Part shown: positions 12,638 through 39,742 of the stretch, piece by piece | Layout: each line of letters opens with the position of its first letter | How positions within the stretch are numbered: position 1 is the stretch's first letter | Assembly: GCA_035292425.1 (NCBI GenBank) | Contig: DATDQD010000096.1 | Span: 1-40,547, forward strand | Direction of reading: 5' to 3' | DNA from: Bacteroidota bacterium | GTDB lineage: Bacteria; Bacteroidota; Ignavibacteria; UBA10030; SZUA-254 | Length of the DNA stretch: 40,547 nt | Made by a program: the position numbers and the translations under genes | The notes under the pieces: generated by a model | Told to the model about the DNA's origin: nothing | The model's database searches: none | What the model saw: the letters and a program-made list of their open reading frames with translations, nothing else

Positions 12638-12883
12638 CTATTTCATCACCACCATCTTCATGGTCTCCGAAAACCCCCTCGTCATAATCCTATAGAAATA
12701 TATTCCGCTCGGGACACCCCGGGCATTCCATTCAACGGTGTGCTTCCCGGCTTCTCTCCACTCATGAACAAGCGCGGCAATCTCCCGACCGAATATATCG
12801 AAAATCCTCACACTGACCGTGCCGGACGTCGGCAATGAGTAAGTGACCGATGTCGATGGATTGAAGGGATTGGGGTAGTTTTG
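12638..12883 (-). repeat. T9SS CTD-coding segment, copy 1 of a dispersed paralogous repeat
   Basis: The 81-codon CTD aligns without gaps to the CTD of the adjacent gene. I counted 58 of 81 identical residues by hand, and there are long near-identical DNA runs such as ccgggcattccattcaac.gtgtgcttcccg. Confidence 0.6.
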
Positions 12884-14536: not shown

Positions 14537-14568
14537 AAAATCGTCTCCTCTGCCAATTTGGATGCGAT

Positions 14569-14814
14569 TCACTTCACCAACACCATTTTCTTGGTATCAG
14601 AAAATCGTTCAGTGGTAATTCGGTAGAGATATATCCCACTCGGGATACTCCGGGCATTCCATTCAACCGTGTGCTTCCCGACTTCTTTCCTCTCATGAAT
14701 GAGGGTGGCCACCTCACGGCCGAGTATGTCGAATATTCTCACACTGACCAGACCAGCCATTGACAATGAATACGTGATTGACGTTGACGGATTGAAGGGA
14801 TTCGGGTTGTTTTG
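14569..14814 (-). repeat. T9SS CTD-coding segment, copy 2 of a dispersed paralogous repeat
   Basis: See copy 1 (12638-12883). Both copies are on the same strand, 1.9 kb apart, at the 3' ends of adjacent genes. Confidence 0.6.
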
Positions 14815-26583: not shown

Positions 26584-29037
26584 ATGCTAAAATCCACGCT
26601 CAAGAACATATTACCCTGGCTTTCTATCCGGAGTAAGCTCATCATTGCTTTCGTCGGACTTTCCATTGTTCCGCTTGCCCTGGTCGGTTTATACAGTATT
26701 TATTTGAATGTCCGGACAATGGAGAAAACCGCCCTTGAGAATCTCACGCACGATGTTCATACCATCCGGGAAAATACTGCAAATTTTCTTGGCAGCATCG
26801 AAAGCGACCTCAGGGTTCTGCGAAATTCGTCGCCGCTTGATCGTCTCATCACGGTCCTCGAGCGGAAATCCCCCGCCCAGACCAAAGTGATTCTCGACAA
26901 TCTCCAATCTGAAGTATTATCCTTTGCGCAAACGAAGCAGATTTATTACCAAATCAGAGTTGTGGACGATGACGGAGACGAACTGTTCCGTATCGAAACA
27001 GTGGACGTTACGGACACGGCATCGATCTACCGGATGGCTGGATCGACTGAGCTGCGGCATGCACGCGAATCATTTTATTTCCTCCTTATCGATCGTCTCA
27101 GAAAAGACCAAATTGCATTTGCACCGGGAGAGCTTGTGGATGACCAGAATCGAAGGATCCCGGTCATCAGTTTTGCGATGCCGCTTATCGGATCACGGAC
27201 CAGGGTCGGCACTCTCATCGCCAATGTATTTGCAAAAAATCTTTTCCGCGTCATCGAAGCAAACCGCCATCTCGAAGTCCAGGGAAAGATCGTTCTCGTA
27301 AACAGCGATGGCCATTATCTCTATCATTCCGAGAAGAAAAAGGACTGGAACAGACTCCTGGCATCACGCGAAGAAGATAATCTCCAGCATGATTACCCGG
27401 GTTCTACTGTTGCGGCGATTCTTTCAGGGAACGAGGGTACTGTCGCAGAAGGGGTCGATGAGATAGTCTCCTATGGTCCACTGTTCTCTACGACCGTTGG
27501 TGATAAAGTTACGCCCGGTTTTACGATGCCTTATTTCGCCTTTGAAAGTGTTCCCAAAGAATTTGTCCTGGGACCGGTACGTTCTTTCGCCTGGACATTT
27601 GCAAGTTTTCTCGGGGTGTTTCTCCTTCTGGCGATCGGGTTGGGATTGTTGGCGACCAGACAATTTACCAGACCTATCGCCGAGTTACACCATGGGGCTG
27701 CCATCATCTCGAATGGGAACTACGGCCAGCGACTTCGCGTGGATACACACGACGAAATCGAAAAACTTGCGGAGCAATTCAATGCCATGGCAGCGTCACT
27801 TGAATCGCATGAACATGAGATCCAGCATCACCGGACGAAGCTCGAAGAGATGGTGAGGAAGCGAACCTTCGAGTTGAATGAAGAGAAGACGAAACTCCAG
27901 GCGATACTCGATCATGTGCCAAGCGCCATCGTTTTATTGGATAAGGATTTTCGAATCCGGAGCGCCAGTGCCGCCTTCTCAACGATCACGGGACGTCGAT
28001 TCGAGGAAGTGGGCGGCAAGGACTGTGAGGCGGTGTTTTTCAATAACAGCTTTTGTCTGGAGTGTGTGTGCAGAAAGGCGATGGCGACCGGCAAGATCGA
28101 AGGCCATGTGGATCAGACGTATGATCATAAATTGGGTGAACGGTTCATTGAACACATTGCGATTCCGATGCATGACAATGGAGAGGTTGATTCTATCCTC
28201 GAGATCATCACCGATATCACAGAGCGCAAGAGATTCGAAAAAAACCTTCTCCAGGCCGAGCGGCTTGCGGCCGCAGGCGAGATGTCGGCAATTATTGCAC
28301 ACGAGTTCCGCAACTCGCTCACTTCGATCAAGATGATCCTGCAGCTTCATGCCGAGTCGAAGAATCTGAATCGCTCGGAGAGGAAGTCGCTCGACGTAGC
28401 GCTGGATTCAATCGACCAGATGGAGAACATCGTCGCAGAGTTGCTTAACTTTGCCCGTCCGAAGCCGATGGAGGTCCACGTCAAATCATTGAACACCATC
28501 GTTGTGGAGAGTTTGGCCTTCGCTCACCAACGGATATCGAAACAGAATATCTCCGTTAAGAAAATCCTGGATGCAGAGTTACCCCCATTCCCTCTCGACG
28601 AACCGTTGATGAAAGAATCGATCATGAACGTATTGATTAATGCCGCACACGCCATCGACAACGATGTTCGGAAGACGAACCTGGGAGTAATCCAAATCCT
28701 CACCAGGCGGGAATGTCTCCGAAAGACGCTGCGAGACTTTGGCATCGACAAAAGCTGGAGGAGGGACGCCTCAAATCCGGTAGGAGCGGAAATTATCCTG
28801 CCGAAAGGCACTGATTGTGCCGTAATTGAAATCCACGATAACGGCTCCGGCATCGAACGTCAATTTCTCCCTCGAATCTTTGATCCGTTCTTCACGACGA
28901 AAACCAACGGTACGGGACTCGGCCTGCCCATGGTGAAGCGGACCGTAAACGCCCACGGCGGGATCGTCGCGGTGAGCAGCACGGTACACAAAGGAACTAC
29001 GGTGAAGTTATATTTGCCCCTTCACCATGAAGCGTGA
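26584..29037 (+). CDS. Membrane sensor histidine kinase (large periplasmic Cache-like domain, HAMP, PAS, HisKA, HATPase_c)
   Basis: Two TM helices (residues ~19-40 and ~335-358) flank a ~295-aa extracytoplasmic domain. The HAMP region is RPIAELHHGAAIISNGNYGQRLRV...EIEKLAEQFNAM. The PAS domain carries a 4-Cys cluster. The H-box is IAHEFRNSLTSI, the N box NVLINAAHAI, and the G boxes are DNGSGI and TNGTGLGL. Confidence 0.9.
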   Translation: MLKSTLKNILPWLSIRSKLIIAFVGLSIVPLALVGLYSIYLNVRTMEKTALENLTHDVHTIRENTANFLGSIESDLRVLRNSSPLDRLITVLERKSPAQTKVILDNLQSEVLSFAQTKQIYYQIRVVDDDGDELFRIETVDVTDTASIYRMAGSTELRHARESFYFLLIDRLRKDQIAFAPGELVDDQNRRIPVISFAMPLIGSRTRVGTLIANVFAKNLFRVIEANRHLEVQGKIVLVNSDGHYLYHSEKKKDWNRLLASREEDNLQHDYPGSTVAAILSGNEGTVAEGVDEIVSYGPLFSTTVGDKVTPGFTMPYFAFESVPKEFVLGPVRSFAWTFASFLGVFLLLAIGLGLLATRQFTRPIAELHHGAAIISNGNYGQRLRVDTHDEIEKLAEQFNAMAASLESHEHEIQHHRTKLEEMVRKRTFELNEEKTKLQAILDHVPSAIVLLDKDFRIRSASAAFSTITGRRFEEVGGKDCEAVFFNNSFCLECVCRKAMATGKIEGHVDQTYDHKLGERFIEHIAIPMHDNGEVDSILEIITDITERKRFEKNLLQAERLAAAGEMSAIIAHEFRNSLTSIKMILQLHAESKNLNRSERKSLDVALDSIDQMENIVAELLNFARPKPMEVHVKSLNTIVVESLAFAHQRISKQNISVKKILDAELPPFPLDEPLMKESIMNVLINAAHAIDNDVRKTNLGVIQILTRRECLRKTLRDFGIDKSWRRDASNPVGAEIILPKGTDCAVIEIHDNGSGIERQFLPRIFDPFFTTKTNGTGLGLPMVKRTVNAHGGIVAVSSTVHKGTTVKLYLPLHHEA

Positions 29038-30442
29038 CGACAAGATCGGAGCCAGCGTCCTGGTCGTCGACGACGACGAGAAAATTCTCTTCGCCTTTCA
29101 GGAAGTACTGAGGAAAGACGGTCACAGGTGCATCGTGGCCAGGAACGGCGAAGAGGCGCTGGGTCAGCTGCTCAAGGAGTCTCCCGATCTGGTGTTCATG
29201 GATATTACGATGCCGAAGCTCGATGGCATCGAGACCCTGAAGCGGATCAAGCAGCACGGGAGTCTCCTTCCGGTGATCATTATCACCGGCTACGGAACGA
29301 TGCAGACGGCGATCAGGGCGGTGCAGAGCGGGGCGTTTGAGTATCTCACCAAGCCGCTGGATGTCGAGAAAATCCGGGAGGTGACAAACAGGGCGATTTA
29401 TGCTCTCAATACCAGAGCGGCGGGGTTGAAGGAAGTTGATGTATACAGGGCGGATGTCGTGGACCGATATGACCTTGTGGGTCGAAGCGACAAGATGCAG
29501 GAAGTCTACAAGCTGATCGGCTCCATCTCGACGACGCCAAATCATACGTCGGTCTTGATTACGGGTGAGAGCGGGACAGGGAAAGAGCTCGTGGCCAGAG
29601 CCATTCATGCCAACGGCACGAATTTCGATGAGCCTTTCATCGGCATCAATTGCACTACCTTGCCGGAATCGTTGCTGGAATCAGAACTGTTCGGATACGA
29701 AAAGGGGGCGTTTACCGGCGCAACCGACCGTAAACTGGGTAAATTCGAGTTTGCAGGGAAAGGTACCATTTTCCTCGACGAAATTATAAACCTCTCGCCC
29801 AACCTCCAACAAAAACTGCTTCGGGTACTCCAGGAGAGAGAATTCGAACGACTGGGCGGAAACACCGCCATACACGCAGAGGGTCGATTCATCGCCGCCA
29901 CGAATCGTGACATCGACCACGAAGTGAAAAAGGGATTTTTCAGGGAAGACCTGTTCTATCGACTGAATATTGTCACGATCCACCTTCCTCCTTTGCGCGA
30001 ACGGAAGGAGGACATACCGATGCTCGCAAGCTATTTCCTGATGAAGTACAACGGCCATCTGAAACGGTCGGTAAAGGGATTTTCGGACGACGCCATGAGC
30101 CTTCTCCTGTCCTACAGGTATCCGGGGAATGTCCGGGAGCTCGAAAATCTCATCGAACGCGCGGTGATGCTGACGAAGGGAGATGTCGTCCTCCCGGAAA
30201 TGATCGAAGATAAACTCGCAACGTCGGTGAAAGGATCCGACACACTTCCAATCATCAGCCCGCTGTTCAGCCAATCCCGCGAACATATCCTGATGCTGTT
30301 TGAAAAACAGTTCCTGATCGGGCAGCTGATAAAGCATCACGGCAACGTAACCGCCGCCGCGAAAGCATCCGGGATGACCAGACAGAATTATCAGCGACTG
30401 ATGAAGAAGTACGACCTCAGCGCAGATCCTTATCGAACGTAA
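29027..30442 (+). CDS. Sigma-54-dependent NtrC/Fis-family response regulator (REC - AAA+ - HTH)
   Basis: REC features are VLVVDDDE, DLVFMDITMP and KP. AAA+ features are Walker A GESGTGKE, the sigma-54 contact loop GAFTGA, and GTIFLDEI. A C-terminal Fis-type HTH is present (GNVTAAAKASGMTRQNYQRLMKKY). The gene overlaps the kinase gene by 11 nt. Confidence 0.92.
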   Translation: MKRDDKIGASVLVVDDDEKILFAFQEVLRKDGHRCIVARNGEEALGQLLKESPDLVFMDITMPKLDGIETLKRIKQHGSLLPVIIITGYGTMQTAIRAVQSGAFEYLTKPLDVEKIREVTNRAIYALNTRAAGLKEVDVYRADVVDRYDLVGRSDKMQEVYKLIGSISTTPNHTSVLITGESGTGKELVARAIHANGTNFDEPFIGINCTTLPESLLESELFGYEKGAFTGATDRKLGKFEFAGKGTIFLDEIINLSPNLQQKLLRVLQEREFERLGGNTAIHAEGRFIAATNRDIDHEVKKGFFREDLFYRLNIVTIHLPPLRERKEDIPMLASYFLMKYNGHLKRSVKGFSDDAMSLLLSYRYPGNVRELENLIERAVMLTKGDVVLPEMIEDKLATSVKGSDTLPIISPLFSQSREHILMLFEKQFLIGQLIKHHGNVTAAAKASGMTRQNYQRLMKKYDLSADPYRT

Positions 30443-30636: not shown

Positions 30637-30651
30637 TGGCACGGTCCTTGT
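30637..30651 (+). promoter_or_regulatory. Sigma-54 (-24/-12) promoter candidate
   Basis: TGGCACGgtccTTGT compared with the consensus TGGCACG-N4-TTGC(A/T). The spacing is exact and there is one mismatch in the -12 element (GT for GC). It lies 38 nt upstream of the ATG at 30689 and directly downstream of a sigma-54 activator gene. Confidence 0.5.
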
Positions 30652-30688: not shown

Positions 30689-31081
30689 ATGAGGAAACCG
30701 ACGGTTTTGGTCGTCGATGACGACGAGAATATTCTCTCCGCGTTCAACGATTTTCTGAAAAAAGAGCGCTGTGAGATGATCGCCGCCTCGAGTATGGATG
30801 AGGCAATGGGGATGCTTGAGCGGCGTCGCGTGGATGTTCTCATTGCCGACGTCAGGCTCAAGGCACAGTCGGGCGTCAAGCTCACCCTGGAGGTAAAACG
30901 CAGGCATCCCGGGATTTCAATCATTCTCATCACGGGATATCCGGAGCTCGTCAGCGAATGCGACGCTAAATCGTCCGGCGCGGATTATTTCTTCCTGAAA
31001 CCTCTGAACATTGACAAGCTCCGGGAAGCCGTGTCAATATGTTTGACGCATCGGAATACAGAACCTAAAATGCCGGTATAA
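30689..31081 (+). CDS. Stand-alone CheY-like receiver-domain protein
   Basis: It is 130 aa with the acidic pocket VVDDDE, the phospho-acceptor context VLIADVRL, the conserved T (ILITGY) and the conserved K (FLKPL). No output domain is present. Confidence 0.85.
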   Translation: MRKPTVLVVDDDENILSAFNDFLKKERCEMIAASSMDEAMGMLERRRVDVLIADVRLKAQSGVKLTLEVKRRHPGISIILITGYPELVSECDAKSSGADYFFLKPLNIDKLREAVSICLTHRNTEPKMPV

Positions 31082-31117
31082 TTAAACTCATGTATAACTC
31101 CTGGGAAGGACAACACC

Positions 31118-32365
31118 ATGAAGACCTTTGTGATCTGCGTTCTGGCGGCCGCCTGCCTGCTCGTGCTCTTCGTCGAAGACGGATGGGGCATCCCATCGTT
31201 TTCGCGAAAGTACAAGACCAGCTGCAGCACCTGCCACTACGCCTTTCCGATGCTCAATGCATTCGGTAAAGCGTTTAAAAATAACGGCTACCGTTATCCC
31301 GGTGGCGATGAGAATTATCGGAAGGAAGAACCGGTCAGTCTTGGAGCGGAAGGCTACAAGAAAGTATGGCCTGATGCCGTCTGGCCGGGTGATATGCCCG
31401 GCACCTCGCCGCTCTCGGTGCTTGCAGTCGGCCGGATCAATTACAGCGCACTGAGCAGCGTGAAGTGGGAATTCGAATTCCCGCATGAACTCGAAGTGCT
31501 TTATGCCGGCACGATAGGGGAAGACTTTTCGTTTTTTGGCGAGGTTGAGGTCGAGAATGAAGGCAATGAAACGGAAATCGCGTTCCCGTTTGCGCTGCAA
31601 TTCGATCCCGACCCCGGTTTTCATGTGCGGGTAGGTATGGTCAATGCCGATCCGACGCCTACACATCTCCGGCTTACCAGGAATCATTACAACATGGCGA
31701 GTTTAAGAACCCGGAACGGATGGCGGTTCCGCGATGAACAGATCGGACTGGAAGTGTGGGGTGCCGCCAATGGCGCCGGGGACCGGGGCGGTTTCACCTA
31801 TCGGGCAGGTGTGGTCAACGGACAGGGGATCAGCGATTTGAACCCGCAAAAGGATGTCTATGGGAAACTGACCTATAAGATCGGAGGGTTGGGTGAGATT
31901 GGGGGTACGGAGGGCGCGGAGAGCGAGGCATCGGAATTTTACGTTGACAACTCGATAACCCTCGGCGGTTTTTTTTACAGGGGGATTGCATCAAAAGAGG
32001 GGGCAGACGATGAAGACTTTACGGTGTTTGGCGGCGATGTTGATCTCTGGTACGGCCGCTTCATCGCCAACGCTTCGGTGATGTCGATGAACTCCGACAT
32101 TCCGAATACCGCTGAGCGCAAATCACTGGTGTATTATGCCCAGGGTAACTATGTCCTTTATCCGTGGCTCATCGGTCTCGTGCGGTATGAGTGGGAGGAC
32201 AAAGACACCGACAATGATGCCGTCAAGCCCGTGAATGCAGTTATCCCCGGCGTGACGGTCGTCGCCCGGGCAAACGTAAAATTCATGCTGGAGTTTAAAA
32301 AGTTTCTGGACGACGTGAACGAGAATAACGATACTTTCGTCCTGCAAATGAATTTTGGCATCTAA
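31118..32365 (+). CDS. Cyc2-like fused monohaem cytochrome c - outer-membrane beta-barrel porin (candidate)
   Basis: A signal peptide (MKTFVICVLAAACLLVLFVEDGWG) is followed immediately by IPSFSRKYKTSCSTCHYAFPMLNAFGKAFKNNGYRYPG, which carries a single CXXCH. About 370 aa of alternating hydrophobic/polar beta-strand-like sequence follow (EFEFPHELEVLYAG, FSFFGEVEVENEG, EIAFPFALQFD, FMLEFKKF, FVLQMNFGI). The Cyc2 assignment comes from recalled family features and is not verified. Confidence 0.55.
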   Translation: MKTFVICVLAAACLLVLFVEDGWGIPSFSRKYKTSCSTCHYAFPMLNAFGKAFKNNGYRYPGGDENYRKEEPVSLGAEGYKKVWPDAVWPGDMPGTSPLSVLAVGRINYSALSSVKWEFEFPHELEVLYAGTIGEDFSFFGEVEVENEGNETEIAFPFALQFDPDPGFHVRVGMVNADPTPTHLRLTRNHYNMASLRTRNGWRFRDEQIGLEVWGAANGAGDRGGFTYRAGVVNGQGISDLNPQKDVYGKLTYKIGGLGEIGGTEGAESEASEFYVDNSITLGGFFYRGIASKEGADDEDFTVFGGDVDLWYGRFIANASVMSMNSDIPNTAERKSLVYYAQGNYVLYPWLIGLVRYEWEDKDTDNDAVKPVNAVIPGVTVVARANVKFMLEFKKFLDDVNENNDTFVLQMNFGI

Positions 32366-32462
32366 TGAATGCATGGTGAATGATAAATCCGGGGGAGCAG
32401 TGTCCTCCGCTCCCCCGGATCGTATTGTCAACATGTGAATGTCTTATTGAAAGGAAAACCTC

Positions 32463-33056
32463 ATGAAACACGCGATCATCGCATTGCTCGGTTTCTCTGT
32501 TTGTCTGGTGTGCGGTGCGTACGCCGGAGACATCAAAGGCAAGGTTAAGGCCAAAGGAGCCAGACACGGCGGCGACGCCGTCGTCTACATCGACTCGATC
32601 CCGGGGAAGAAATTCGACCCCCCGAAGGAACACGCCAAGATGGACCAAAAAAACCTGACGTTCATACCGCACGTTCTTCCGATCCTCGCGGGAACGGCAG
32701 TGGACTATCTCAATAGCGACGACGTACTCCACAATGTCTTCACCCCCGAAAAATGCGCCGAAAAGTTCAACCTTGGTACGTGGCCCAAAGGGCAGGTGCG
32801 GTCTTATACTTTTAAAGAGCCCGGATGTATTCCCGTGATGCTGTGCAACGTCCATCCCGAGATGGAAGCGTATATCCTTGTTCTTGGAACACCGTACTAC
32901 GCGGTCAGCGCAAAGGATGGAAGCTATGCCCTGAAGGATATTCCTCCCGGAAAATACACCTTAAAGATCTGGCATGAAAAACTCAAGGGTGACGCGAAAG
33001 AAATCACGGTGCCTGAATCGGGAGAGATGGAGATGAATTTTGAGATAACGAAGTAA
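32463..33056 (+). CDS. Periplasmic cupredoxin-like (type-1 Cu candidate) protein with a C-terminal CarboxypepD_reg-like beta-sandwich
   Basis: A signal peptide is present. The cupredoxin_1-like pattern is LTFIPHVLPILAGTAVDYLNSDDVLHNVF ... MLCNVHPEMEAYILV, giving candidate ligands His/Cys/His/Met with amicyanin-like C-x2-H-x2-M spacing. The tail SAKDGSYALKDIPPGKYTLKIWHEKL is typical of the carboxypeptidase-regulatory-like fold. Confidence 0.6.
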   Translation: MKHAIIALLGFSVCLVCGAYAGDIKGKVKAKGARHGGDAVVYIDSIPGKKFDPPKEHAKMDQKNLTFIPHVLPILAGTAVDYLNSDDVLHNVFTPEKCAEKFNLGTWPKGQVRSYTFKEPGCIPVMLCNVHPEMEAYILVLGTPYYAVSAKDGSYALKDIPPGKYTLKIWHEKLKGDAKEITVPESGEMEMNFEITK

Positions 33057-33101
33057 TTCCCCGGTCATTCGGAAGGATCAAGGGCGGCGTGATGTCGGGA
33101 G

Positions 33102-35006
33102 ATGCACATGTCTGATCATGTGAAATTCGTCAACCTCGAATGGCTTGATTCAAATTTTCCCTGCATGGCTGCCTGCCCCGTTCATACGGAAGCGGGCCGG
33201 TATGTAGCGCTGATCGAAGAAGGTCGGTACCGGGAAGCATATCACGTCGCCCGGCGTCCAAATCCGTTTGCTTCGATCTGCGGACGCATCTGCGCGGCGC
33301 CGTGTGAGCCCGCATGCCGGCGCGGCAAGGCTGATCAACCCATTGCCATCCGTGCGCTGAAACGCTTTGTGTGTGAACGCTTCGGAGTCGAAAGCATGAT
33401 CGACCTCGAAAAATTGAAAGAGGTCTTCGGCAAAACGGTGAGGAAGAATGGTATTAAAGTCGCCGTCCTGGGCGCCGGACCCGCAGGACTTTCCTGCGCT
33501 CATGATCTCGCCCTGTTGGGCTATGAGGTAACGGTATTTGAAGCCCAGTCGGTTGCCGGAGGAATGTTGAGACTCGGTGTTCCGGAGTACCGCCTCCCCC
33601 GGGAACTGATCCGGCTTGAGGTCAACGGTATTCTCAGTCTCGGAGTCGAACTTAAACTGAACTCTGCCATCGGCCGGAATTTTACACTATCCGACCTCGA
33701 AGAGCAGGGCTATCGCGCCATCTTTATCGCAATCGGCGCTCACAAGAGCCGTGACCTGCGAATTGAAGGTGTCGAGCTTGACGGTGTCCTCCGGGCCGTC
33801 GACTTTCTCCTTAATGTGAACCTTGGCTACCGTGTCGAATTGGGGAACAAGGTCATCGTGATCGGCGGCGGCAATGTGGCGATCGATGTCGCCCGGACGG
33901 CTGCCCGGCAGGATACAATCGAGGTCGGTCATGTAACGGAAGTGGCCGAGGCGCTGGATGTTGCCCGCTCGGCTGTTCGCTTCGGCGCGAAGGAAGTGCA
34001 CATGGTTTGCCTCGAAGACTGGCGGGAGATGCCTTCTTCACGGGAGGAAATCACCGAAGCATTGGAAGAACGGATTCAGATCCATCCGCGCAAAGGTCCG
34101 GGCAAAATCATCGGACACAACGGCCGCGTTGTGGGATTTGAAACGATCGATTGTGTATCGGTCTTCGATGAACAGGGCCGCTTCAATCCGAAGTTCGCTC
34201 CGGGCACGGAGAAGTTCATGGAAGCCGATACGGTGATCATGGCGATCGGTCAGACATCCGACCTTTCATGGATTCGACCCGAAGATAAAATCGGGATCAC
34301 CCCACGGAACACCATCAAAGTCGATCCGCGCACCCTCGCCACTACAGCACCCGGCATCTTCGCGGGCGGCGATGTCTCGTTCGGTCCACGAAATGCCATC
34401 GATGCGGTCGCCAACGGAAAAAAAGCAGCTGAATCCATTCACCGGTATATCACGGGGAACGATGCTCAGCGAATCGCCCCGGAGTCCGGTGATCGTGATG
34501 TGGAAATCGTTGTCTACGACAAGGCACACTGTAACCGTGAGTGGGGCTATGAGAAGAAACACCGCATCCCCATTCCGTCACTGGCGATCGATCGGCGCAT
34601 CGGGGTTGCGCAGGTGGAGCTCGCGTACACCGAACACCAGGCCCGGGAGGAGGCGTCCCGCTGTCTCCACTGCTGGATCAATACTATTTTCGAGGCAGAG
34701 GGCGAGGGAACCGGAACGGAGTGCATTCTCTGCGGCGGATGTGTGGATATTTGCCCCGAGAACTGTATCGATCTCGTTGTGCTCGATCGGGTCGATGTTG
34801 ATCAATCGATGATCGTCGAACTTGAAAATGAATATGACGTCGTGCTTACAGGAGAAACCGAAACGTCGACGGGTTCGGTCATGATCAAAGATGAAGACAT
34901 TTGCATCCGTTGCGGACTCTGTGCGATGCGCTGTCCAGTCGGATGCATTACCATGGAAGGATACACCGTTTCGCTGACAAAACCCGAGGTAACGATTGGC
35001 CATTAG
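33102..35006 (+). CDS. GltD/NfnB-like NAD(P)H-dependent FAD oxidoreductase with an N-terminal FeS domain and a C-terminal 2x[4Fe-4S] ferredoxin domain
   Basis: Fer4_20-like Cys pattern (CMAACPVHTE...ICGRICAAPCEPACRRG). Two Rossmann motifs (VAVLGAGPAGLSCAHDLALLGYEVTVFE and VIVIGGGNVAIDVARTA) and AGGD are present. The C-terminal cluster motifs are CILCGGCVDICPENC and CIRCGLCAMRCPVGC. There is no signal peptide. The start may be the ATG at 33108 (GGGAGA Shine-Dalgarno). Confidence 0.85.
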   Translation: MHMSDHVKFVNLEWLDSNFPCMAACPVHTEAGRYVALIEEGRYREAYHVARRPNPFASICGRICAAPCEPACRRGKADQPIAIRALKRFVCERFGVESMIDLEKLKEVFGKTVRKNGIKVAVLGAGPAGLSCAHDLALLGYEVTVFEAQSVAGGMLRLGVPEYRLPRELIRLEVNGILSLGVELKLNSAIGRNFTLSDLEEQGYRAIFIAIGAHKSRDLRIEGVELDGVLRAVDFLLNVNLGYRVELGNKVIVIGGGNVAIDVARTAARQDTIEVGHVTEVAEALDVARSAVRFGAKEVHMVCLEDWREMPSSREEITEALEERIQIHPRKGPGKIIGHNGRVVGFETIDCVSVFDEQGRFNPKFAPGTEKFMEADTVIMAIGQTSDLSWIRPEDKIGITPRNTIKVDPRTLATTAPGIFAGGDVSFGPRNAIDAVANGKKAAESIHRYITGNDAQRIAPESGDRDVEIVVYDKAHCNREWGYEKKHRIPIPSLAIDRRIGVAQVELAYTEHQAREEASRCLHCWINTIFEAEGEGTGTECILCGGCVDICPENCIDLVVLDRVDVDQSMIVELENEYDVVLTGETETSTGSVMIKDEDICIRCGLCAMRCPVGCITMEGYTVSLTKPEVTIGH

Positions 35007-35012
35007 GAAGGA

Positions 35013-35510
35013 ATGATCATGAACGAAGAGCATGCCCGCGGAAAGCATACCACCGGACTTACCACGCGCCGCTATTTTCTCGAAGTCGTCGGGGGCGGCG
35101 CCATCGGCATTGCCGCCGCCGGCAGTGTTGTCCTGACCGCACAATTTCTCTCCCCCAATGTTTTGCTCGAACCTTCATTGAAATTCAAGGCCGGTTCTCC
35201 GGAGAATTATGCACCAGCATCCGTCACGTTGCTGAAAGAGCAGAAGGTCTTCATCGTCCGGGCACGAGAAGGCTATTTCTATGCTCTGTCCGCGATCTGC
35301 ACGCATCTCGGCTGTATTGCGAACTGGAAGCCGGAAGACGGCATCATCGCCTGTCCTTGTCACGGCAGCAAGTTCGGACAGGATGGAAAAGTTCTCGACG
35401 GGCCTGCGCCGGGACCATTGCCGAGGTTTTCCATGACCCTGGATGAACAGGGGCGACTGGTTATTGACAAAGGTGTCCCGGGAGGTGAAGAAGAAATTTT
35501 AAAGGTGTAA
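35013..35510 (+). CDS. Rieske [2Fe-2S] subunit with a Tat signal
   Basis: A twin-arginine leader ([21 protein letters not shown]) and cluster boxes CTHLGC and CPCHGSKF. The gene lies only 6 nt after the flavoprotein stop. The ATG at 35019 has better spacing from the AGGAAGGA Shine-Dalgarno. Confidence 0.9.
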
Positions 35511-35520
35511 GGGATTGACG

Positions 35521-36231
35521 ATGAAAAAAATGTTTGAACGGATCTTCCGAACCCAGGTGTGGCGCTCGATGTTCCGTCACGGTGTGCCGGACTCCAACCG
35601 CACACGCGCCGAAATGATATTCTATAATTTCTTCCTGCATGTCCACCCGACGAAGGTACGAAAGCGATCCGTGAGATTCGCCTACACGTGGGGACTCGGC
35701 GGAATATCAATGGGCTTGTTCATCGTTCTCACGCTCACCGGGGCGCTGCTGATGCTCTACTATCGTCCATCGGTACCGCAAGCGTATATGGACATGAAGG
35801 ACTTGGAATTCGTGGTTTCTTCCGGTCAATTCTTAAGGAACATGCACCGCTGGGCCGCGCATGCCATGGTAGCGGTTGTTTTTCTCCACATGCTTCGGGT
35901 CTTTTACACGGGTTCGTACCGCCCCCCGAAAGAATTCAATTGGGTCATCGGCGTTCTTCTTCTGGTCTCGACGATCCTCCTGAGCTACACCGGATACCTC
36001 TTACCGTGGGATCAACTATCGTTCTGGGGAATCTCCGTCGGAACCAACATGGTGAGAGCGATGCCGTTCGGGCTGGGGGAAAAGATTTCGTTTCTCCTGC
36101 TGGGCGGGAATGTCGTGGGTGAAAATGCGCTCGTAAGGTTTTACGTCCTGCACTGTTTCATCATCCCCCTGATAGCGGTGATACTGATGGGAATCCATTT
36201 TTGGAGAGTGCGGAAGGACGGCGGGGTATGA
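35521..36231 (+). CDS. Cytochrome b6-type (N-terminal, four-helix) cytochrome b subunit
   Basis: The helix B pair is H-x13-H ([15 protein letters not shown]) and the helix D pair is H-x14-H ([16 protein letters not shown]), which is the b6f/Bacillus-type spacing. [15 protein letters not shown] is also present. I chose the ATG at 35521 (AAGGG Shine-Dalgarno). The track ORF starts at TTG 35515. Confidence 0.88.
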
Positions 36232-36281
36232 CAGGATTATCACAAGCCGATCCCCGACGGTGGATCATCGAATGAGCGATC

Positions 36282-36980
36282 ATGGACAAAGATTTTACCA
36301 TCGACACGAGCCCCGACAGTAAAAAAACACCCAGGCGGATAGCGTTCGTCAAAAGTCGAACCGCAGCCCGGGTGAACATTGATGACGAAGAGATGGTGAT
36401 GACATTCCCCAATCTCGTCATCAAGGAGGTCATCGCCTTTCAAATCATGGTTATCATTCTTGCCGTCATATCGTTACTGGTGGATGCACCCCTGGAGTGG
36501 ATTGCAAATCCCGAACATACGCCGAACCCGGCAAAGGCACCATGGTATTTTCTCGGACTGCAGGAGCTGTTGCATTATTTCCCCCCCGTGGTAGGCGGTG
36601 TGATCCTCCCCGCGCTCGCAATCATCGCGTTGATCGTGATCCCATACTTTCGGATCAATATCAAACGCGAAGGTCTCTGGAAAAAACATAGGAAACGAAT
36701 GTTCATCGGCGTCATCGTAGTTGTTGGAATTTTATCGCTTGTCCTCGTCGCGTTCAAAGTGTTTTCCCTGCTGATCCCGACGCTGGCAGTTACCGCCATG
36801 ATGCTCATCCCGTATTTTTCCAGGAAAGAAGCCGGTCTCGTCGGCTGGCTTGGTTCCCGTCCCCTTTCATGGTGGATCATGACGTGGTTCATCATCATCG
36901 CCGTCGTTCTTACGACAATCGGTACACTGTTCCGGGGCCCGGAGTGGAGCTGGACGGTCCCCTGGGAAGGAATATATTGA
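36282..36980 (+). CDS. Cytochrome b C-terminal domain / subunit IV-like membrane protein (extended)
   Basis: NPAKAPWYFLGLQELLHYFPP matches the P(E/D)WY-type Qo-site motif of subunit IV / cytochrome b C-terminal domains. A ~50-aa hydrophilic N-terminal extension precedes about 5 hydrophobic helices. Confidence 0.8.
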   Translation: MDKDFTIDTSPDSKKTPRRIAFVKSRTAARVNIDDEEMVMTFPNLVIKEVIAFQIMVIILAVISLLVDAPLEWIANPEHTPNPAKAPWYFLGLQELLHYFPPVVGGVILPALAIIALIVIPYFRINIKREGLWKKHRKRMFIGVIVVVGILSLVLVAFKVFSLLIPTLAVTAMMLIPYFSRKEAGLVGWLGSRPLSWWIMTWFIIIAVVLTTIGTLFRGPEWSWTVPWEGIY

Positions 36981-36981
36981 G

Positions 36982-38925
36982 GTGCCGGGCCTTATGAAAT
37001 ATTTTGCGGCTTCGAGTCTGACGTTTCTGATCGTCCTTGCCATTGTGCCGGTCAAAGATTATTTCCGTGAGTGGAAGCGGTATCAATACGAATACAACGA
37101 TCTCATCAAGACGCTGCCGCAGCGCGTCAAACCGGCAGACATCGGCATCAAACAGCTCTGGGTGAGAAACCTTGAGAAAATTGATCGCTGCGTCACTTGT
37201 CACCTCGGTTTAAAGGAGGAAGCCCTGCGCGCATCACGTCAACCGTTCCGGACGCACCCCCACATCTACCACGACATTGAAGAGTTCGGCTGCACGATTT
37301 GTCACGAGGGTCAGGGTCTCTCGACGACATTCAAAGAATCCGTCGGCAGAGTGAAGTACTGGGACAGGCCCATCTTTCCACGCGAATTCATGGAGGCCTC
37401 ATGCGCCAAGTGTCATAAAGAAAAGCGGGTCCCACAAGCACCGATCCTCACGTCGGGTCGAAAGCTCATTGAAGAGTCCAACTGTGCGGGCTGCCACACG
37501 ATCGACGGTTACCCTAAACATTGGATTCCCGCTCTTGACGGTATAGGATCGAAGGTGAACCGGACCTGGCTGGTGAATTGGCTGAAGAACCCGAAAGCGT
37601 ATTTCGCCGGGACGAAAATGCCAAATTTCATGTTGTCGAATGAGGAATCAAATCTCCTGGCCGACTTTCTGATGACATTCACCAAATTTCCCGGGGGGGT
37701 TGTATTACATCCAGTCCCGATTCAACTGGCGGTTTCGACTGATGCAGAGAGAGAGAAGTCGATCGATCTCGGCTCGACACGATTTCGGGAAGCCCGCTGT
37801 ATCAGTTGTCATCCTGTTAACGGGAAAGGAGGATCCGGGGCGACCGATCTTGGTAAGGTCGCCGATAAGGTCGACATGAAATGGCTGTTTAATTATGTTC
37901 AGAGCCCCAAACGGCTTCAGCCGGGCGTCGAAATGCCGAGATACCGTTTTAACGAAAATGAGCTTGCCGGAGTTGTCGCCTACATGCAGAGTGAGTTCAC
38001 GGAAGGGGAAACAGGGGAAAATACGTCTTACGCGCGCGACCCGGCATTTTATGAAAAAGGTCTTGCATTGTACAAGAAATACAACTGCAGCGGATGCCAC
38101 CAACTCGGGGGGATGCTGAAAGCGGAAGAGATGGCGCCGGAACTCACCTTTGTCGGCGACAAGAAAATCTACGAGATTGATTTCGGCGAGTCGACAATCG
38201 GGCAATCGCTTCCCGCGTATCTCTTCACAAAACTCAAAGCCCCCCGTTCTTTCTCGTCCTCCATGAAGATGCCCAGCTATGAATTCAGCGACGAGGAGGC
38301 GCAGGCTGTCACAACGGCCTTACTCGGCAACATCAGTGACCAGTTACCCGGGGAATTCATCGTCCGTCCGGCTCAGGTCAGATCCTACCAACCTCAGGGA
38401 GAATTTGGCAAGTTGGTGGATGATCTGGCGTGTTTTGGATGTCACACGATGTTCGGGCGGGGCAGATTGATCGCAACCGATCTGACACTCGAAGCGAGCC
38501 AGGCTCAGAGAAAATGGATAGAAGATTACTTCAAAGTGCCGTATTCACTCCGACCGGTCTTGACTGATAGGATGCCGAACTTGTTCCTGTCGGAGTCAGA
38601 AATCAGGGTGCTGGTCGACTATATGGAACAGGTATTCCTTGCAGATAGCCTGGAGCGTCACATCGAGATCGATGAGACCAAAATCGCAAAAGGGGAAATC
38701 CTGTATTTCGAAAAGTACGGCTGTCATGCATGTCACCAGCTCAGACAGAAAGGCGGATATGTCGGCCCCCCCCTGGACAAGATCGGTTCCAGACTGAAAC
38801 CAAATTGGATTTTCCACTGGCTGAAAAACCCCCGGGCCTTTAAGCCGGAATCGATCGAGCCCGACAATCATTTATCGGATGAAGAGGCTGAGGCGCTAAC
38901 GGCGTTTCTCATGACGGTTCAGTGA
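36982..38925 (+). CDS. Membrane-anchored octahaem c-type cytochrome (3 closely spaced haems plus 5 class-I-like cytochrome c modules)
   Basis: Eight CXXCH motifs: CVTCH, CTICH, CAKCH, CAGCH, CISCH, CSGCH, CFGCH and CHACH. An N-terminal TM helix is present (YFAASSLTFLIVLAIVPV). Five repeated modules follow the pattern CxxCH...L..(I/V)G.K......W......P........MP...L...E...L..(F/Y)(L/M). The GTG start lies 1 nt after the previous stop. An alternative ATG is at 36994. Confidence 0.85.
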   Translation: MPGLMKYFAASSLTFLIVLAIVPVKDYFREWKRYQYEYNDLIKTLPQRVKPADIGIKQLWVRNLEKIDRCVTCHLGLKEEALRASRQPFRTHPHIYHDIEEFGCTICHEGQGLSTTFKESVGRVKYWDRPIFPREFMEASCAKCHKEKRVPQAPILTSGRKLIEESNCAGCHTIDGYPKHWIPALDGIGSKVNRTWLVNWLKNPKAYFAGTKMPNFMLSNEESNLLADFLMTFTKFPGGVVLHPVPIQLAVSTDAEREKSIDLGSTRFREARCISCHPVNGKGGSGATDLGKVADKVDMKWLFNYVQSPKRLQPGVEMPRYRFNENELAGVVAYMQSEFTEGETGENTSYARDPAFYEKGLALYKKYNCSGCHQLGGMLKAEEMAPELTFVGDKKIYEIDFGESTIGQSLPAYLFTKLKAPRSFSSSMKMPSYEFSDEEAQAVTTALLGNISDQLPGEFIVRPAQVRSYQPQGEFGKLVDDLACFGCHTMFGRGRLIATDLTLEASQAQRKWIEDYFKVPYSLRPVLTDRMPNLFLSESEIRVLVDYMEQVFLADSLERHIEIDETKIAKGEILYFEKYGCHACHQLRQKGGYVGPPLDKIGSRLKPNWIFHWLKNPRAFKPESIEPDNHLSDEEAEALTAFLMTVQ

Positions 38926-39441
38926 ATGAACGCATTTGAAATGTACTCCACGCCAATCAAAGCGGAGATTACGGGAGGTGTGCGACGCGATGTGCATGCA
39001 CAATTCGGCGATATGAAAATCTATCGTGGAATAACCCGTCTCAGAATAGTGCCAGCGGTCTGTTTATCATTGAGCATCGTATGTTGTTCAGAGAACCGTT
39101 CACATTCAGAGGACAAGACATCCGTAAAGGACTTGCGAACGTTGCTCACCTACGAGGAGCGACAAGGCAAACAACTTTATACTAAGTATTGCGCCGTCTG
39201 CCACGGTCAGGAAGGGAAAGGCGATGGTTTCAATGCCTTCAATTTGGACACGAAACCAAGGGATTTTACCGATTCCATCTACATGAACGCGCTGAGCGAT
39301 GAGAGACTGATCGAGACAATCAATGAGGGTGGAAGAGGTGTTAATCGATCTTCCCTCATGCCGTCGTGGAATGGAAGCTTGAAGAGTGTGGAAATAGATT
39401 ATGTCGTATCGTACATCCGCCGGTTCAGGTATTCAGATTGA
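38926..39441 (+). CDS. Monohaem class-I c-type cytochrome (probable lipoprotein or periplasmic)
   Basis: LYTKYCAVCHGQEGKGDG ... SSLMPSWNG (CXXCH plus a distal Met context). The ATG abuts the previous stop (TGAATG). An internal ATG at 39013 gives a cleaner signal/lipobox-like N-terminus (MKIYRGITRLRIVPAVCLSLSIVCCSE). Confidence 0.85.
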   Translation: MNAFEMYSTPIKAEITGGVRRDVHAQFGDMKIYRGITRLRIVPAVCLSLSIVCCSENRSHSEDKTSVKDLRTLLTYEERQGKQLYTKYCAVCHGQEGKGDGFNAFNLDTKPRDFTDSIYMNALSDERLIETINEGGRGVNRSSLMPSWNGSLKSVEIDYVVSYIRRFRYSD

Positions 39442-39535: not shown

Positions 39536-39742
39536 TCATATTATTTCTCGTAGGACATTGAATCCGCGCGTGATCTGCCCCCGATCACCCTCCGCCCGGT
39601 AGCGTGCCGGCAACCGGTAGAGCTGACGGGTCCCCAGCCCCAGGGTGGTGGCAGCTTCGTCAACCGTGAGCCGACGGGCGTTCACCTGCCCGATCGACTT
39701 CAAGCGATCTCGTTCGTTGGCGCTCATCGTCAGTATGCGCAT
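39536..39742 (-). mobile_element. Remnant of an IS transposase gene (N-terminal HTH of ISNCY/rve-integrase-type transposases only)
   Basis: MSANERDRLKSIGQVNARRLTVDEAATTLGLGTRQLYRLPARYRAEGDRG resembles the conserved N-terminus (..E..RL.vi..v...rlt...AA..LGLS.RQv.RL..RYr.eG..GL) of about 450-aa transposases. Here the ORF stops after 68 codons and only about 95 nt remain before the next gene, so the catalytic domain is absent. Confidence 0.55.

Follow-up and report, generated by a model that had tools for sequence, protein, structure and literature searches.

A Rieske/cytochrome b operon of Ignavibacteria that encodes an NfnB-like flavoprotein and a Cyc2-family cytochrome-porin: a putative link between the quinone pool, an outer-membrane chain and NAD(H)

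Introduction

Can a Rieske/cytochrome b complex exchange electrons with nicotinamide adenine dinucleotide (NAD) in lineages other than the anaerobic ammonium-oxidizing (anammox) bacteria, for which such a reaction has been proposed? The question is raised by a locus on contig DATDQD010000096.1 (NCBI GenBank assembly GCA_035292425.1) of a Bacteroidota bacterium from the Ignavibacteria (SZUA-254); the whole stretch of this contig that was analyzed, 40,547 nucleotides (nt) in length, is called the window below. In this locus a gene for a flavoprotein of 634 amino acids (aa), predicted to carry flavin adenine dinucleotide (FAD) and iron-sulfur (FeS) clusters, directly precedes the genes for a Rieske/cytochrome b core, within a gene run that also encodes a Cyc2-family cytochrome-porin, a cupredoxin and two cytochromes c. 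In our judgment the operon probably specifies one electron-transfer system extending from the outer membrane to the cytoplasm, in which quinol bifurcation, or in the reverse direction confurcation, would link the quinone pool, a periplasmic/extracellular chain and NAD(H).

Systems of this kind are already known as a hypothesis for anammox bacteria. An NAD(P)-linked function was proposed for the anammox complexes R/b-2 and R/b-3 (Kuenenia kustd1480-85 and kuste4569-74; Kartal et al., 2013), AlphaFold3 (AF3) models of an anammox complex with electron exchange between its b haems and NAD(P) have been presented (Hauser et al., 2025, PMC12954380), and the function of these NAD(P)-linked Rieske/cytochrome b complexes is still described as unclear. 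What appears to be new here, as read from the sequences, is a flavoprotein clade of its own that probably has an NADH site, together with a cytochrome b without haem cN, a partner made up of Cyc2 and a cupredoxin, putative control by sigma-54 and a distribution over many phyla. No description of an Ignavibacterial or other non-anammox version was found in the literature searched, whose coverage was partial, so that an earlier mention is possible; the genome paper on Ignavibacterium album reports no cytochrome b-Rieske complex in the type strain, but alternative complex III only.

Organization of the Operon

Every open reading frame (ORF) discussed here is present in the ORF table of the window, and from 30689 to 39441 the genes form a co-directional run on the + strand:

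30689..31081, + strand: single-domain response regulator, opening the putative sigma-54 operon (Pfam Response_reg; synteny)
31118..32365, + strand: predicted Cyc2-family fused monohaem cytochrome-porin of the outer membrane, 415 aa (motifs, AlphaFold2 (AF2) model, Foldseek)
32463..33056, + strand: putative periplasmic cupredoxin, 197 aa, with a C-terminal CarboxypepD_reg beta-sandwich (weak sequence matches, aligned ligands)
33102..35006, + strand: predicted cytoplasmic NfnB-like FAD/NAD(H) FeS flavoprotein, 634 aa (Pfam, NCBIfam, PDB search, AF2, Foldseek)
35013..35510, + strand: Rieske [2Fe-2S] protein with a twin-arginine translocation (Tat)-type signal anchor (Pfam, PDB matches, Kuenenia orthologue)
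35515..36231, + strand: four-helix cytochrome b of the b6 type that keeps the four canonical haem His (Pfam, NCBIfam, alignments)
36282..36980, + strand: extended subunit IV-like protein (Pfam Cytochrom_B_C, hydropathy, alignments)
36982..38925, + strand: membrane-anchored octahaem cytochrome c, 647 aa (eight CxxCH, N-terminal transmembrane (TM) helix, Pfam)
38926..39441, + strand: monohaem class-I cytochrome c, 171 aa, membrane- or lipid-anchored (Pfam Cytochrome_CBB3, one CxxCH, hydrophobic N-terminus, synteny)

The stop codon of the flavoprotein gene (TAG, 35004-35006) is followed by the spacer GAAGGA and by the Rieske ATG at 35013, which leaves the gap of 6 nt that a preliminary description of the locus had reported; the Rieske gene could instead start at a second in-frame ATG (35019), and the gap would then be 12 nt. 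The next junctions measure 4 nt (Rieske to cytochrome b), 50 nt, 1 nt and 0 nt, the last in front of the monohaem cytochrome c gene, whose real start may lie ~87 nt further downstream. Scans for sigma-70 promoters and for terminators returned nothing decisive within the operon. These tight junctions and the conserved synteny described below support the earlier view that the flavoprotein gene belongs to the Rieske/cytochrome b operon.

Identity of the Flavoprotein

Three Pfam regions make up the flavoprotein, namely Fer4_20 (residues 19-93), Pyr_redox_2 (119-439) and a 4Fe-4S dicluster matched by Fer4_7/Fer4 (541-617), the last of which, with its conserved Cys, is the extra C-terminal 2x[4Fe-4S] ferredoxin module that had been recognized in the preliminary description. 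Sixteen Cys are invariant or nearly invariant among 43 family members (C21, 25, 60, 64, 68, 72, 521, 524, 541, 544, 547, 551, 601, 604, 607 and 611), enough for four [4Fe-4S]-type sites; the layout predicted from them comprises two N-terminal-type [4Fe-4S] sites and the C-terminal module. By hydropathy and inspection of the sequence, the protein has no TM or hydrophobic segment and no signal peptide.

Which family does this protein belong to? In a PDB sequence search its best match was NfnA of NfnABC (9bov/9bp5, 303 bits), followed by T. sibiricus NfnA, StnA (8oh5) and NfnI-L, and then by GltD (6s6s, 186 bits) and dihydropyrimidine dehydrogenase (DPD), while the C-terminal region also matched the polyferredoxin FwdF (5t5i). 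When the AF2 model (mean predicted local distance difference test score, pLDDT, 84.5) was submitted to Foldseek, NfnA of 9bov again came first (E 2e-47, 660 columns), ahead of StnA 8oh5 and NfnI-L and then of GltD and DPD. The GltD cut-offs of NCBIfam are missed by far (220.5 against 447.7 for TIGR01317, 235.4 against 482.95 for TIGR01318), and the protein stays well under the cut-off of every curated NCBIfam equivalog. Because sequence and fold matches both rank NfnB-like modules first and the GltD cut-offs are so distant, the flavoprotein is, as judged from these comparisons, an NfnB-like NAD(P)(H):FeS oxidoreductase module and not a glutamate synthase subunit. The preliminary description had assigned it the layout of the GltD small subunit; the FeS, FAD and NAD(P) domains of this layout are present, but the nearest family is the NfnB-like one. 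It had also remarked that no gene for a glutamate synthase large subunit lies nearby, and indeed Pfam revealed no such (GltB) domain in any large ORF of the window, nor did it find an NfnA/Bfu-type partner or a formate dehydrogenase (Fdh) catalytic gene there. That the flavoprotein is the GltD partner of a distant GltB was rejected in view of the curated scores, the lack of GltB in the window and the clade-specific synteny.

The nucleotide domain contains a 22-aa insertion (residues ~272-293) that follows GGGNVAIDVARTAAR and in which a helix motif is repeated; across the lineage the insertion (residues ~270-305) measures 22-50 aa, the repeated motif reading AIDVARTAAR / ALDVARSAVR. Strand beta-2 ends with VCLED in the window flavoprotein, with VCLE[DS] in its lineage and with VYRRT in Kuenenia, YRR being found also in a few other family members. 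In Rossmann folds an acidic residue after beta-2 favours NADH, and YRR favours the phosphorylated form, NADPH. Because the acidic VCLED stands where Kuenenia has VYRRT, the nucleotide site of the window flavoprotein suggests NADH rather than NADPH.

Conservation of the Linkage and Phylogeny

The 120 closest homologues listed from a collection of 5.8 billion proteins are 76-96% identical to the window flavoprotein and ~627 aa long, and those that carry names come from metagenome-assembled genomes (MAGs) of Ignavibacteria/Bacteroidota. Among GTDB representatives, 45 Ignavibacteria/Bacteroidota species possess the flavoprotein (67-88% identity), and all of their loci (45/45) keep the gene order as far as the contig reaches; in the longest loci the order is histidine kinase, sigma-54-dependent response regulator, response regulator, Cyc2, cupredoxin, flavoprotein, Rieske protein, cytochrome b, subunit IV, octahaem c and cytochrome c. 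Intergenic gaps were taken from ORFs that begin at the first start codon, which renders them spuriously negative in 12 loci, where in-frame upstream starts overlap the flavoprotein gene; in 19 of the remaining 23 related loci the flavoprotein and Rieske genes are separated by 9-36 nt.

More distant full-length relatives share 40-58% identity with the window flavoprotein. Twelve of their loci were inspected, from Nitrospinota, Nitrospirota, Myxococcota, Desulfomonilaceae, an Actinomycetes MAG and Thermincola sp., together with loci L060, L064 (a 336-member cluster) and L065-L068 (metagenome). All 12 have a Rieske and/or a cytochrome b gene in the same cluster, and in 11 of them one of these genes directly adjoins that of the flavoprotein, in several cases with overlapping stop and start codons; the linkage of the clade spans at least seven named phyla or classes. 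By comparison, Rieske or cytochrome b genes were found at none (0/53) of the GltD/NfnB-like loci outside the clade that have at least 2.5 kb of flank. They were drawn from ten loci of genomes, where identity was 31-34%, and from the metagenome loci left over, which could be reused as negative controls because the pattern of the metagenome scan, a generic FAD-binding motif only, had sampled the whole GltD/NfnB superfamily effectively at random.

In a neighbor-joining (NJ) tree of 98 sequences the Rieske/cytochrome b-linked flavoproteins are monophyletic in 190 of 200 bootstraps (95%). The preliminary description had considered that the protein might instead cluster with bona fide GltD and that its adjacency to the Rieske gene might not be kept in relatives; it falls into a clade of its own, within which the linkage to Rieske/cytochrome b genes is conserved (45/45 loci as far as the contigs reach, and 12/12 more distant loci) and outside which it was not seen in the control loci (0/53). 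Chance adjacency of the two genes is ruled out by this conservation in every relative with enough flank. An apparent fusion of flavoprotein and cytochrome b was not borne out in the one locus inspected: the 90%-identity cluster of P0144 mixes 607-aa flavoproteins with 244-aa cytochromes b, and in that locus, L145, the genes are separate, with an overlap of 4 nt (7821-7824).

The genes that accompany the module differ among the lineages:

Desulfomonilaceae (L063): NosZ and NosD, adjoining the module
Thermincola sp. (L146): genes of a type II molybdoenzyme, namely for an Mo subunit, Fer4_11, EB_dh and a NarJ-like chaperone
Actinomycetes MAG (L145): NarG/NarH-like genes
Myxococcota (L061): 1159-aa molybdoenzyme
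Nitrospinota (L059): EB_dh protein
Kuenenia (L062): HAO-like octahaem protein

The periplasmic partners in these other lineages are high-potential redox systems, of which NosZ is usable as an electron sink only. Since a bifurcation that lifts one electron to NAD+ needs a high-potential partner, such neighbours count in favour of this type of reaction. At the Nitrospirota loci (L057/L058), the flavoprotein is directly followed by three small proteins of the membrane (181, 199 and 145 aa) in which Pfam recognizes no domain; they could be a different membrane partner.

The Membrane Core

Does the membrane part of the system resemble that of the anammox complexes? The Kuenenia cluster, which was recovered via a Kuste4569 fragment, encodes a Rieske protein, a 581-aa flavoprotein, a cytochrome b, a subunit IV-like protein, a 363-aa multihaem cytochrome c and an HAO-like protein. 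Compared with these by BLASTP, the window proteins show 53% identity over the full length for cytochrome b, 46% for the Rieske protein (residues 18-155 of 165), 38% over the full length for the flavoprotein (E 1e-112, same domain order) and 36% for subunit IV (residues 23-229 of 232), whereas the octahaem c matches the Kuenenia hexahaem subunit at 30% in its N-terminal part only. Judged by these alignments, the membrane core is clearly homologous to the Kuenenia complex; the anammox clusters, which the preliminary description had named for comparison, were thus well chosen, four core subunits having homologues among kuste4569-73.

The Rieske protein begins with a T-R-R-Y-F-L motif, followed by one TM helix (residues 23-41), so that the contrast drawn earlier between a Tat leader here and the missing export signal of the flavoprotein stands. 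Its cluster box, CTHLGC...CPCHGSKF, contains the Ser and has Phe at the Tyr position, as in Kustd1480, and the best PDB matches are 9rk4 (Kuste4569, 3e-25) and 9rk3 (Kustd1480, 4e-22). Because the box carries the Ser that is associated with high potential and matches that of Kustd1480, whose cluster was measured at +335 mV (Hauser et al., 2025, PMC12954380), a high potential is suggested for the window protein too.

In cytochrome b all four canonical haem His are kept in the alignment to b6, its best solved relative (E 5e-42); the best-scoring named family is NCBIfam ExtP, with 273.8 bits against a cut-off of 290, which is not reached. At the position of the Cys that binds haem cN the window protein has Gly (YTW-G-LGG, versus FTW-C-MGG in Kuenenia and FY-C-LGG in b6), which holds in the Ignavibacteria loci from which cytochrome b was recovered; other non-anammox members have Tyr. 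An N-terminal extension includes the conserved motif RHG..R..N.FLH(42)VHP, of which N.FLH.HP is present in nearly all Ignavibacteria cytochrome b genes recovered, and the WRVRKDGG tail is conserved as well. For the anammox complex it is proposed that an extra haem b, ligated by His43 of Kuste4571 from both monomers, forms a bridge to the flavoprotein, and the contact residues named in the models are His43 and Arg247 of cytochrome b and Arg511 of the flavoprotein (Hauser et al., 2025, PMC12954380). His42 of the window protein aligns with this His43, and would by prediction ligate a haem likewise.

The hydropathy profile of subunit IV shows four clear peaks, the third of which covers ~46 residues (136-183) and leaves room for two helices, giving ~5 TM helices in total by hydropathy; the anammox type is distinguished by five such helices instead of three. 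Its Qo motif is APWY, and its C-terminus ends in a conserved FRGPEWSWxVPW shared with Kuenenia, as seen in an alignment that also took in the Myxococcota and L060 homologues; against NCBIfam ExtQ it scores 60.2 bits, short of the cut-off of 150. The motif corresponds to the uncharacterised clade of APWY cytochromes b, among whose members are Planctomycetes, Nitrospirales and delta-proteobacteria (Kao and Hunte, 2014). The preliminary description had drawn attention to the N-terminal extension of subunit IV as a possible docking site. The hydrophilic stretch is real, the first helix beginning near residue 49, but the docking role finds no support, because the extension is largely absent or much shorter in the Kuenenia homologue and because the contacts named for the anammox complex lie on cytochrome b and the flavoprotein. 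We take this N-terminus to be only ~10-15 residues longer than that of canonical PetD, and the C-terminal extension of the protein, with its extra helices, is the more distinctive of the two. The octahaem cytochrome c, in which four c7/c3-like haems precede four class-I domains, occupies the position of cytochrome f/c1.

Outer-Membrane and Periplasmic Partners

The Cyc2 family is recognized by an upstream PXFAR[Q/K][T/Y] motif, a single N-terminal CXXCH, a downstream PXL, a length of >=365 aa and a 16-strand porin (Keffer et al., 2021). The 415-aa protein encoded at 31118..32365 possesses a signal peptide and a single CSTCH within IPSFSRKY-x3-CSTCH-x3-PML (IPSFSRKY-KTS-CSTCH-YAF-PML), and thus displays the Cyc2 signature with Ser at the Ala position of the upstream motif. 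Its AF2 model (pLDDT 77) contains a confident beta-barrel (residues 99-414), and Foldseek matched the model to the 16-strand porins OmpF and PorB (E about 1e-10). On the basis of motifs and model, the protein is a Cyc2-family fused cytochrome-porin. Its gene is annotated as hypothetical everywhere.

Two subtypes of Cyc2 occur in Ignavibacteria, one with CH-YAFPML (66-81% identity to the window protein) and one with CH-NGFPKL (33-39%). Other lineages, too, combine the module with Cyc2-like genes: one lies upstream of the flavoprotein gene in L064 and L067, a Cyc2-like match lies downstream of the cytochrome b gene in L065, and L098, a contig with a partial cluster, contains Cyc2, the cupredoxin and only the start of the flavoprotein gene.

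The 197-aa protein encoded next carries the type-1 copper ligands H..C-x2-H-x2-M (HNV...CNVHPEM), all four of which align with those of amicyanin and of the C-terminal cupredoxin domain of NirK. Its matches to cupredoxins agree with one another, though each is weak (Pfam Copper-bind E 0.018, C-terminal domain of NirK E 0.0013, amicyanin E 0.08), and at default thresholds Pfam misses the copper domain. HNV..CNVHPEM is found in all related loci from which the 197-aa gene was recovered.

Regulation and Other Features of the Window

Upstream of the operon lie the genes of a two-component system and a promoter candidate:

26584..29037, + strand: sensor histidine kinase with periplasmic sensor/dCache, HAMP, PAS, HisKA and HATPase domains (Pfam; syntenic in Ignavibacteria relatives)
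29027..30442, + strand: NtrC-type sigma-54-dependent response regulator (Pfam Response_reg and Sigma54_activat)
30637..30651, + strand: candidate promoter of the sigma-54 type, -24/-12 (TGGCACGGTCCTTGT; conserved position in relatives)

A scan of the window for the sigma-54 motif with <=1 mismatch returned one match where 1.67 were expected, which is not significant alone. The candidate lies ~38 nt 5' of the first operon gene. When the upstream sequences of 26 related loci were read by eye, ~25 of them proved to have TGGYAY-N5-TTGN at the corresponding place, ~35-50 nt 5' of the small response-regulator gene (loci L001-L056), whereas a strict regular expression recovered it in 7 of 24 loci only. 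We keep the promoter because of its conserved position in relatives and not because of the motif count. Genes for a sigma-54 activator are also found 5' of the flavoprotein gene in the Nitrospinota, Desulfomonilaceae and L064 clusters. As a separate observation, the PAS region of the histidine kinase includes a Cys-rich stretch (CEAVFFNNSFCLECVC).

Elsewhere in the window, type IX secretion sorting domains (Por_Secre_tail) occur in two proteins, encoded at 12638-16764 (-) and 19631-25279 (+), which fits a Bacteroidota/Ignavibacteria host; an 1882-aa beta-helix/Ig-like surface protein was noted along with them. A 68-aa ORF just 3' of the operon (39536-39742, -) presumably resembles the helix-turn-helix N-terminus of a transposase, and is possibly the remnant of a mobile element.

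Proposed Mechanism, Energetics and Alternatives

How could such a system work? Its core would consist of the Tat-anchored Rieske protein, the b6-type cytochrome b, the extended subunit IV and the membrane octahaem c, with the NfnB-like flavoprotein (FAD and four FeS clusters) docking on the cytoplasmic face. Menaquinol would be oxidised at the Qo site. The high-potential electron would then pass from the Rieske protein to the octahaem c and, via the monohaem c and/or the cupredoxin, to the Cyc2 cytochrome-porin, while the low-potential electron would pass from haem bL to bH, probably on to the extra haem b (at His42, between the cytochrome b monomers), and through the four FeS clusters and FAD to NAD+, whose reduction would replace the quinone-reducing Qi/Qn half of the normal Q cycle. 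Electron exchange between b haems and NAD(P), as envisaged in the preliminary description, is the same reaction as in the anammox model of Kartal and Hauser, and the conserved His of the extra haem is consistent with it; VCLED suggests NADH rather than NADPH, and the mechanism itself would hold here by analogy.

With potentials of ~-70 mV for menaquinone and -320 mV for NAD(P)+, we estimate that the high-potential acceptor must exceed ~+170 mV, and more in the presence of a membrane potential. N2O fits this threshold, and the likely substrates of the molybdoenzymes encoded in some relatives (presumably nitrate, selenate or chlorate) should fit too.

Several observations weigh against quinol bifurcation to NAD+ as the function of the operon. 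The sole Cyc2 measured (PV-1) has a potential of +208 mV, at which, by our estimate and with the membrane potential counted in, Cyc2 is marginal for forward bifurcation; it is because of this that either direction is possible in Ignavibacteria, be it forward bifurcation to a high-potential acceptor or confurcation. The formation of NAD(P)H by the anammox complexes is itself a proposal that rests on the co-migration of subunits and on AF3 models. Haem cN lies on the electron path modelled for the anammox complex, and its covalent binding is impossible in the window cytochrome b, which has Gly for Cys. The Kuenenia flavoprotein is never sister to the window clade (0/200 NJ bootstraps) but stands among multi-domain NfnA/NfnB-like proteins, and as the gene order differs too, part of the analogy with anammox bacteria may be convergent. 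An NfnB-like module may have been recruited twice, the two forms may have diverged long ago, or the placement may be a tree artefact, a provisional result of the rough NJ method. In Nitrospirota (L057/L058) the flavoprotein gene lies ~4 kb from a more canonical Rieske/cytochrome b set (PEWY, cN cysteine, no N-terminal His motif), and may have another partner there. Finally, the 22-aa insertion has low AF2 confidence, and the binding of the nucleotide is a prediction only.

A broader generalization can be offered as a tentative possibility. Flavoprotein-bearing Rieske/cytochrome b complexes might constitute a widespread, modular class of quinol-bifurcating enzymes, in which NAD+ reduction replaces the Qi half and which plug into Cyc2/cupredoxin, NosZ, type II molybdoenzymes, Nar/Nxr-like enzymes or HAO; the Ignavibacteria operon would then encode a complete pathway from extracellular iron or another redox partner to NAD(H).

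Among the alternatives to bifurcation, we consider confurcation unlikely as the main role of the operon, although it accounts for several of its features. According to this explanation, an electron from Fe(II), taken up by Cyc2 and carried by the cupredoxin and c-cytochromes to the Rieske protein, and an electron from NADH, delivered through the flavoprotein and the b haems, together reduce menaquinone at the Qo site, so that Fe(II) electrons enter the menaquinone pool without a Qi site, for instance for respiration with nitrate or a bd oxidase. The upstream gene agrees with the definition of Cyc2, and the Cyc2 proteins tested biochemically are Fe(II) oxidases; the cupredoxin beside it is reminiscent of Acidithiobacillus, in which a chain of Cyc2 and rusticyanin feeds the reversed bc1; APWY cytochrome b proteins were proposed to work in reverse (Kao and Hunte, 2014); and some relatives lie beside Nar/Nxr-like or EB_dh genes, whose products are possible donors in nitrite oxidisers. 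However, NADH would be spent on making quinol, a task that complex I accomplishes with energy conservation, and the NosZ-linked relative can use the chain as an electron sink only. Moreover, Cyc2 homologues are also reported from Fe(III)-reducing Ignavibacteriaceae, and the nearest core relative without a flavoprotein, ExtOPQ of Geobacter, is upregulated on Fe(III) together with the clustered genes of a putative outer-membrane porin and of multihaem cytochromes.

It is improbable, and less likely than either bifurcation or confurcation, that the proteins form a wire that carries electrons from NADH to the periplasm without a Q cycle. In this case the flavoprotein would pass electrons via the FeS clusters and b haems to a quinone mediator at the Qo site, and from there via the Rieske protein and c-cytochromes to Cyc2 and to Fe(III) or humics, disposing of reductant. 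Cofactors do form an unbroken chain between cytoplasm and outer membrane, haem cN is impossible and no obvious site of the Qi type was identified in a comparison that left out the Qi/Qn residues themselves, Ignavibacteriaceae are treated as Fe(III)- and humic-reducing taxa, and the Geobacter Ext cluster offers a precedent for a Rieske/cytochrome b core whose genes lie beside those of an outer-membrane conduit. Nevertheless, the main route of such a wire is the short circuit from bL to the Rieske protein that Rieske/cytochrome b complexes suppress, it would dissipate the membrane potential and not build it, and the strict conservation of the Qo elements (Rieske box, PWY motif, bL/bH ligands) speaks for real quinol chemistry.

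Least probable of all, and likewise behind the two directions of quinol chemistry, is that the flavoprotein is a soluble stand-alone enzyme (a GltD partner or an Nfn/SudA-like NAD(P)H:ferredoxin or polysulfide reductase) that is merely co-transcribed: its closest solved relatives are soluble (NfnABC, StnABC, NfnI, GltD, DPD), it has no membrane segment, and public annotations name it glutamate synthase beta-like or formate dehydrogenase beta, yet it scores far under GltD (220 against 447.7) and all other NCBIfam equivalogs, no GltB, NfnA or Fdh catalytic gene accompanies it in the window, its clade is defined by a linkage to Rieske/cytochrome b genes, with overlapping junctions, in at least seven phyla or classes that relatives outside the clade lack, and the cytochromes b adjacent to it share the N-terminal His motif, which the Nitrospirota cytochrome b, ~4 kb away, does not have.

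Significance

Bifurcation of quinol electrons towards NAD+ therewith stays the reading that we favour, and its consequences reach beyond one locus. The architecture extends beyond anammox bacteria to Ignavibacteria and to MAGs labelled Nitrospinota, Nitrospirota, Myxococcota, Desulfomonilaceae, Actinomycetes and Thermincola. Anammox bacteria are slow to grow, and genetic tools for them are not known; given cultured carriers, the hypothesis derived from these bacteria could be tested in other lineages. The comparison also separates what is conserved (the His of the extra haem, the APWY Qo motif, the extended subunit IV and the four FeS sites) from what varies (haem cN, the nucleotide-specificity residues and the periplasmic partner).

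If bifurcation takes place, it would constitute a quinol-based route to NADH, and estimates of the energy yield of respiration with high-potential acceptors would change; given the presence of Cyc2 and a cupredoxin in the operon, the route would also be relevant to the way in which bacteria that cycle iron tie extracellular iron to cytoplasmic reductant. Should the wider modular view prove true, it would give a new answer to the question of how iron redox reactions are linked to NADH in neutrophilic, menaquinone-based iron cyclers. As Cyc2 serves as a metagenomic marker of iron oxidation, its linkage to this operon affects the reading of Cyc2 matches in Ignavibacteria.

Comparison with Known Systems

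The closest parallel is found in the anammox R/b complexes, which likewise combine a Rieske protein, a b6-type cytochrome b, an extended subunit IV, a multihaem cytochrome c (6-8 haems) in place of cytochrome f/c1 and a cytoplasmic FAD/FeS NAD(P) oxidoreductase. Both also have in common the APWY Qo motif, the His of the extra haem, the four FeS sites, the Ser of the Rieske box and the WRVRKDGG tail, and 9bp5 and 5t5i, which served Hauser et al. as templates for Kuste4570, also came up as PDB relatives of the window flavoprotein. The two systems differ in gene order (flavoprotein-Rieske-cytochrome b in the window, Rieske-flavoprotein-cytochrome b in Kuenenia) and in the haem cN cysteine, which the window cytochrome b lacks and Kuenenia has. 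The window flavoprotein belongs to a separate clade with an insertion of 22-50 aa and VCLED, whereas that of Kuenenia has no insertion and reads VYRR. The partner is Cyc2 with a cupredoxin in the former and an HAO-like octahaem protein in the latter, and the host is a non-anammox, heterotrophic lineage without an anammoxosome.

With cytochrome b6f the window shares the split of cytochrome b and subunit IV and the four conserved His of the b haems. Differently from b6f, it contains no cytochrome f gene and no haem cN cysteine, has APWY for PEWY and an extended subunit IV, and adds an octahaem c and an NAD(H) flavoprotein.

On the side of the flavoprotein, NfnABC/StnABC (9bov/9bp5, 8oh5, 9n5u) and NfnI (5jca) offer the same FAD and NAD(P) domains and two N-terminal-type [4Fe-4S] clusters, and the ferredoxin-like region of the window flavoprotein also falls within the NfnA alignment. 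These are, however, soluble flavin-based bifurcators with NfnA (FNR-like) or Bfu (NuoE/F-like) partners, none of which is encoded in the window, where bifurcation, if any, would occur at the quinol Qo site and not at the flavin.

Two systems of extracellular electron transfer resemble the remainder of the operon. In Geobacter sulfurreducens, extHIJKLMNOPQS encodes a putative outer-membrane porin and multihaem cytochromes and is upregulated on Fe(III) (Jahan et al., 2018, PMC5877670). Here too, as ExtOPQ(S), a Rieske protein, a cytochrome b, a small membrane subunit and c-cytochromes are encoded beside an outer-membrane porin/cytochrome conduit, but the Ext cluster has no flavoprotein, ExtQ is short (16.8 kDa), and the outer-membrane module is made up of a separate porin and multihaem proteins in place of a fused Cyc2. 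The uphill branch of Acidithiobacillus ferrooxidans, on the other hand, functionally links an outer-membrane Cyc2, a periplasmic cupredoxin, c-cytochromes and a Rieske/cytochrome b complex, much as proposed for the window. The reduction of NAD+ in Acidithiobacillus falls to a separate complex I, once electrons have flowed in reverse through a canonical bc1 that has a Qi site, whereas in the window the predicted NAD(H) module is encoded with the Rieske protein and cytochrome b, all in one putative sigma-54 operon.

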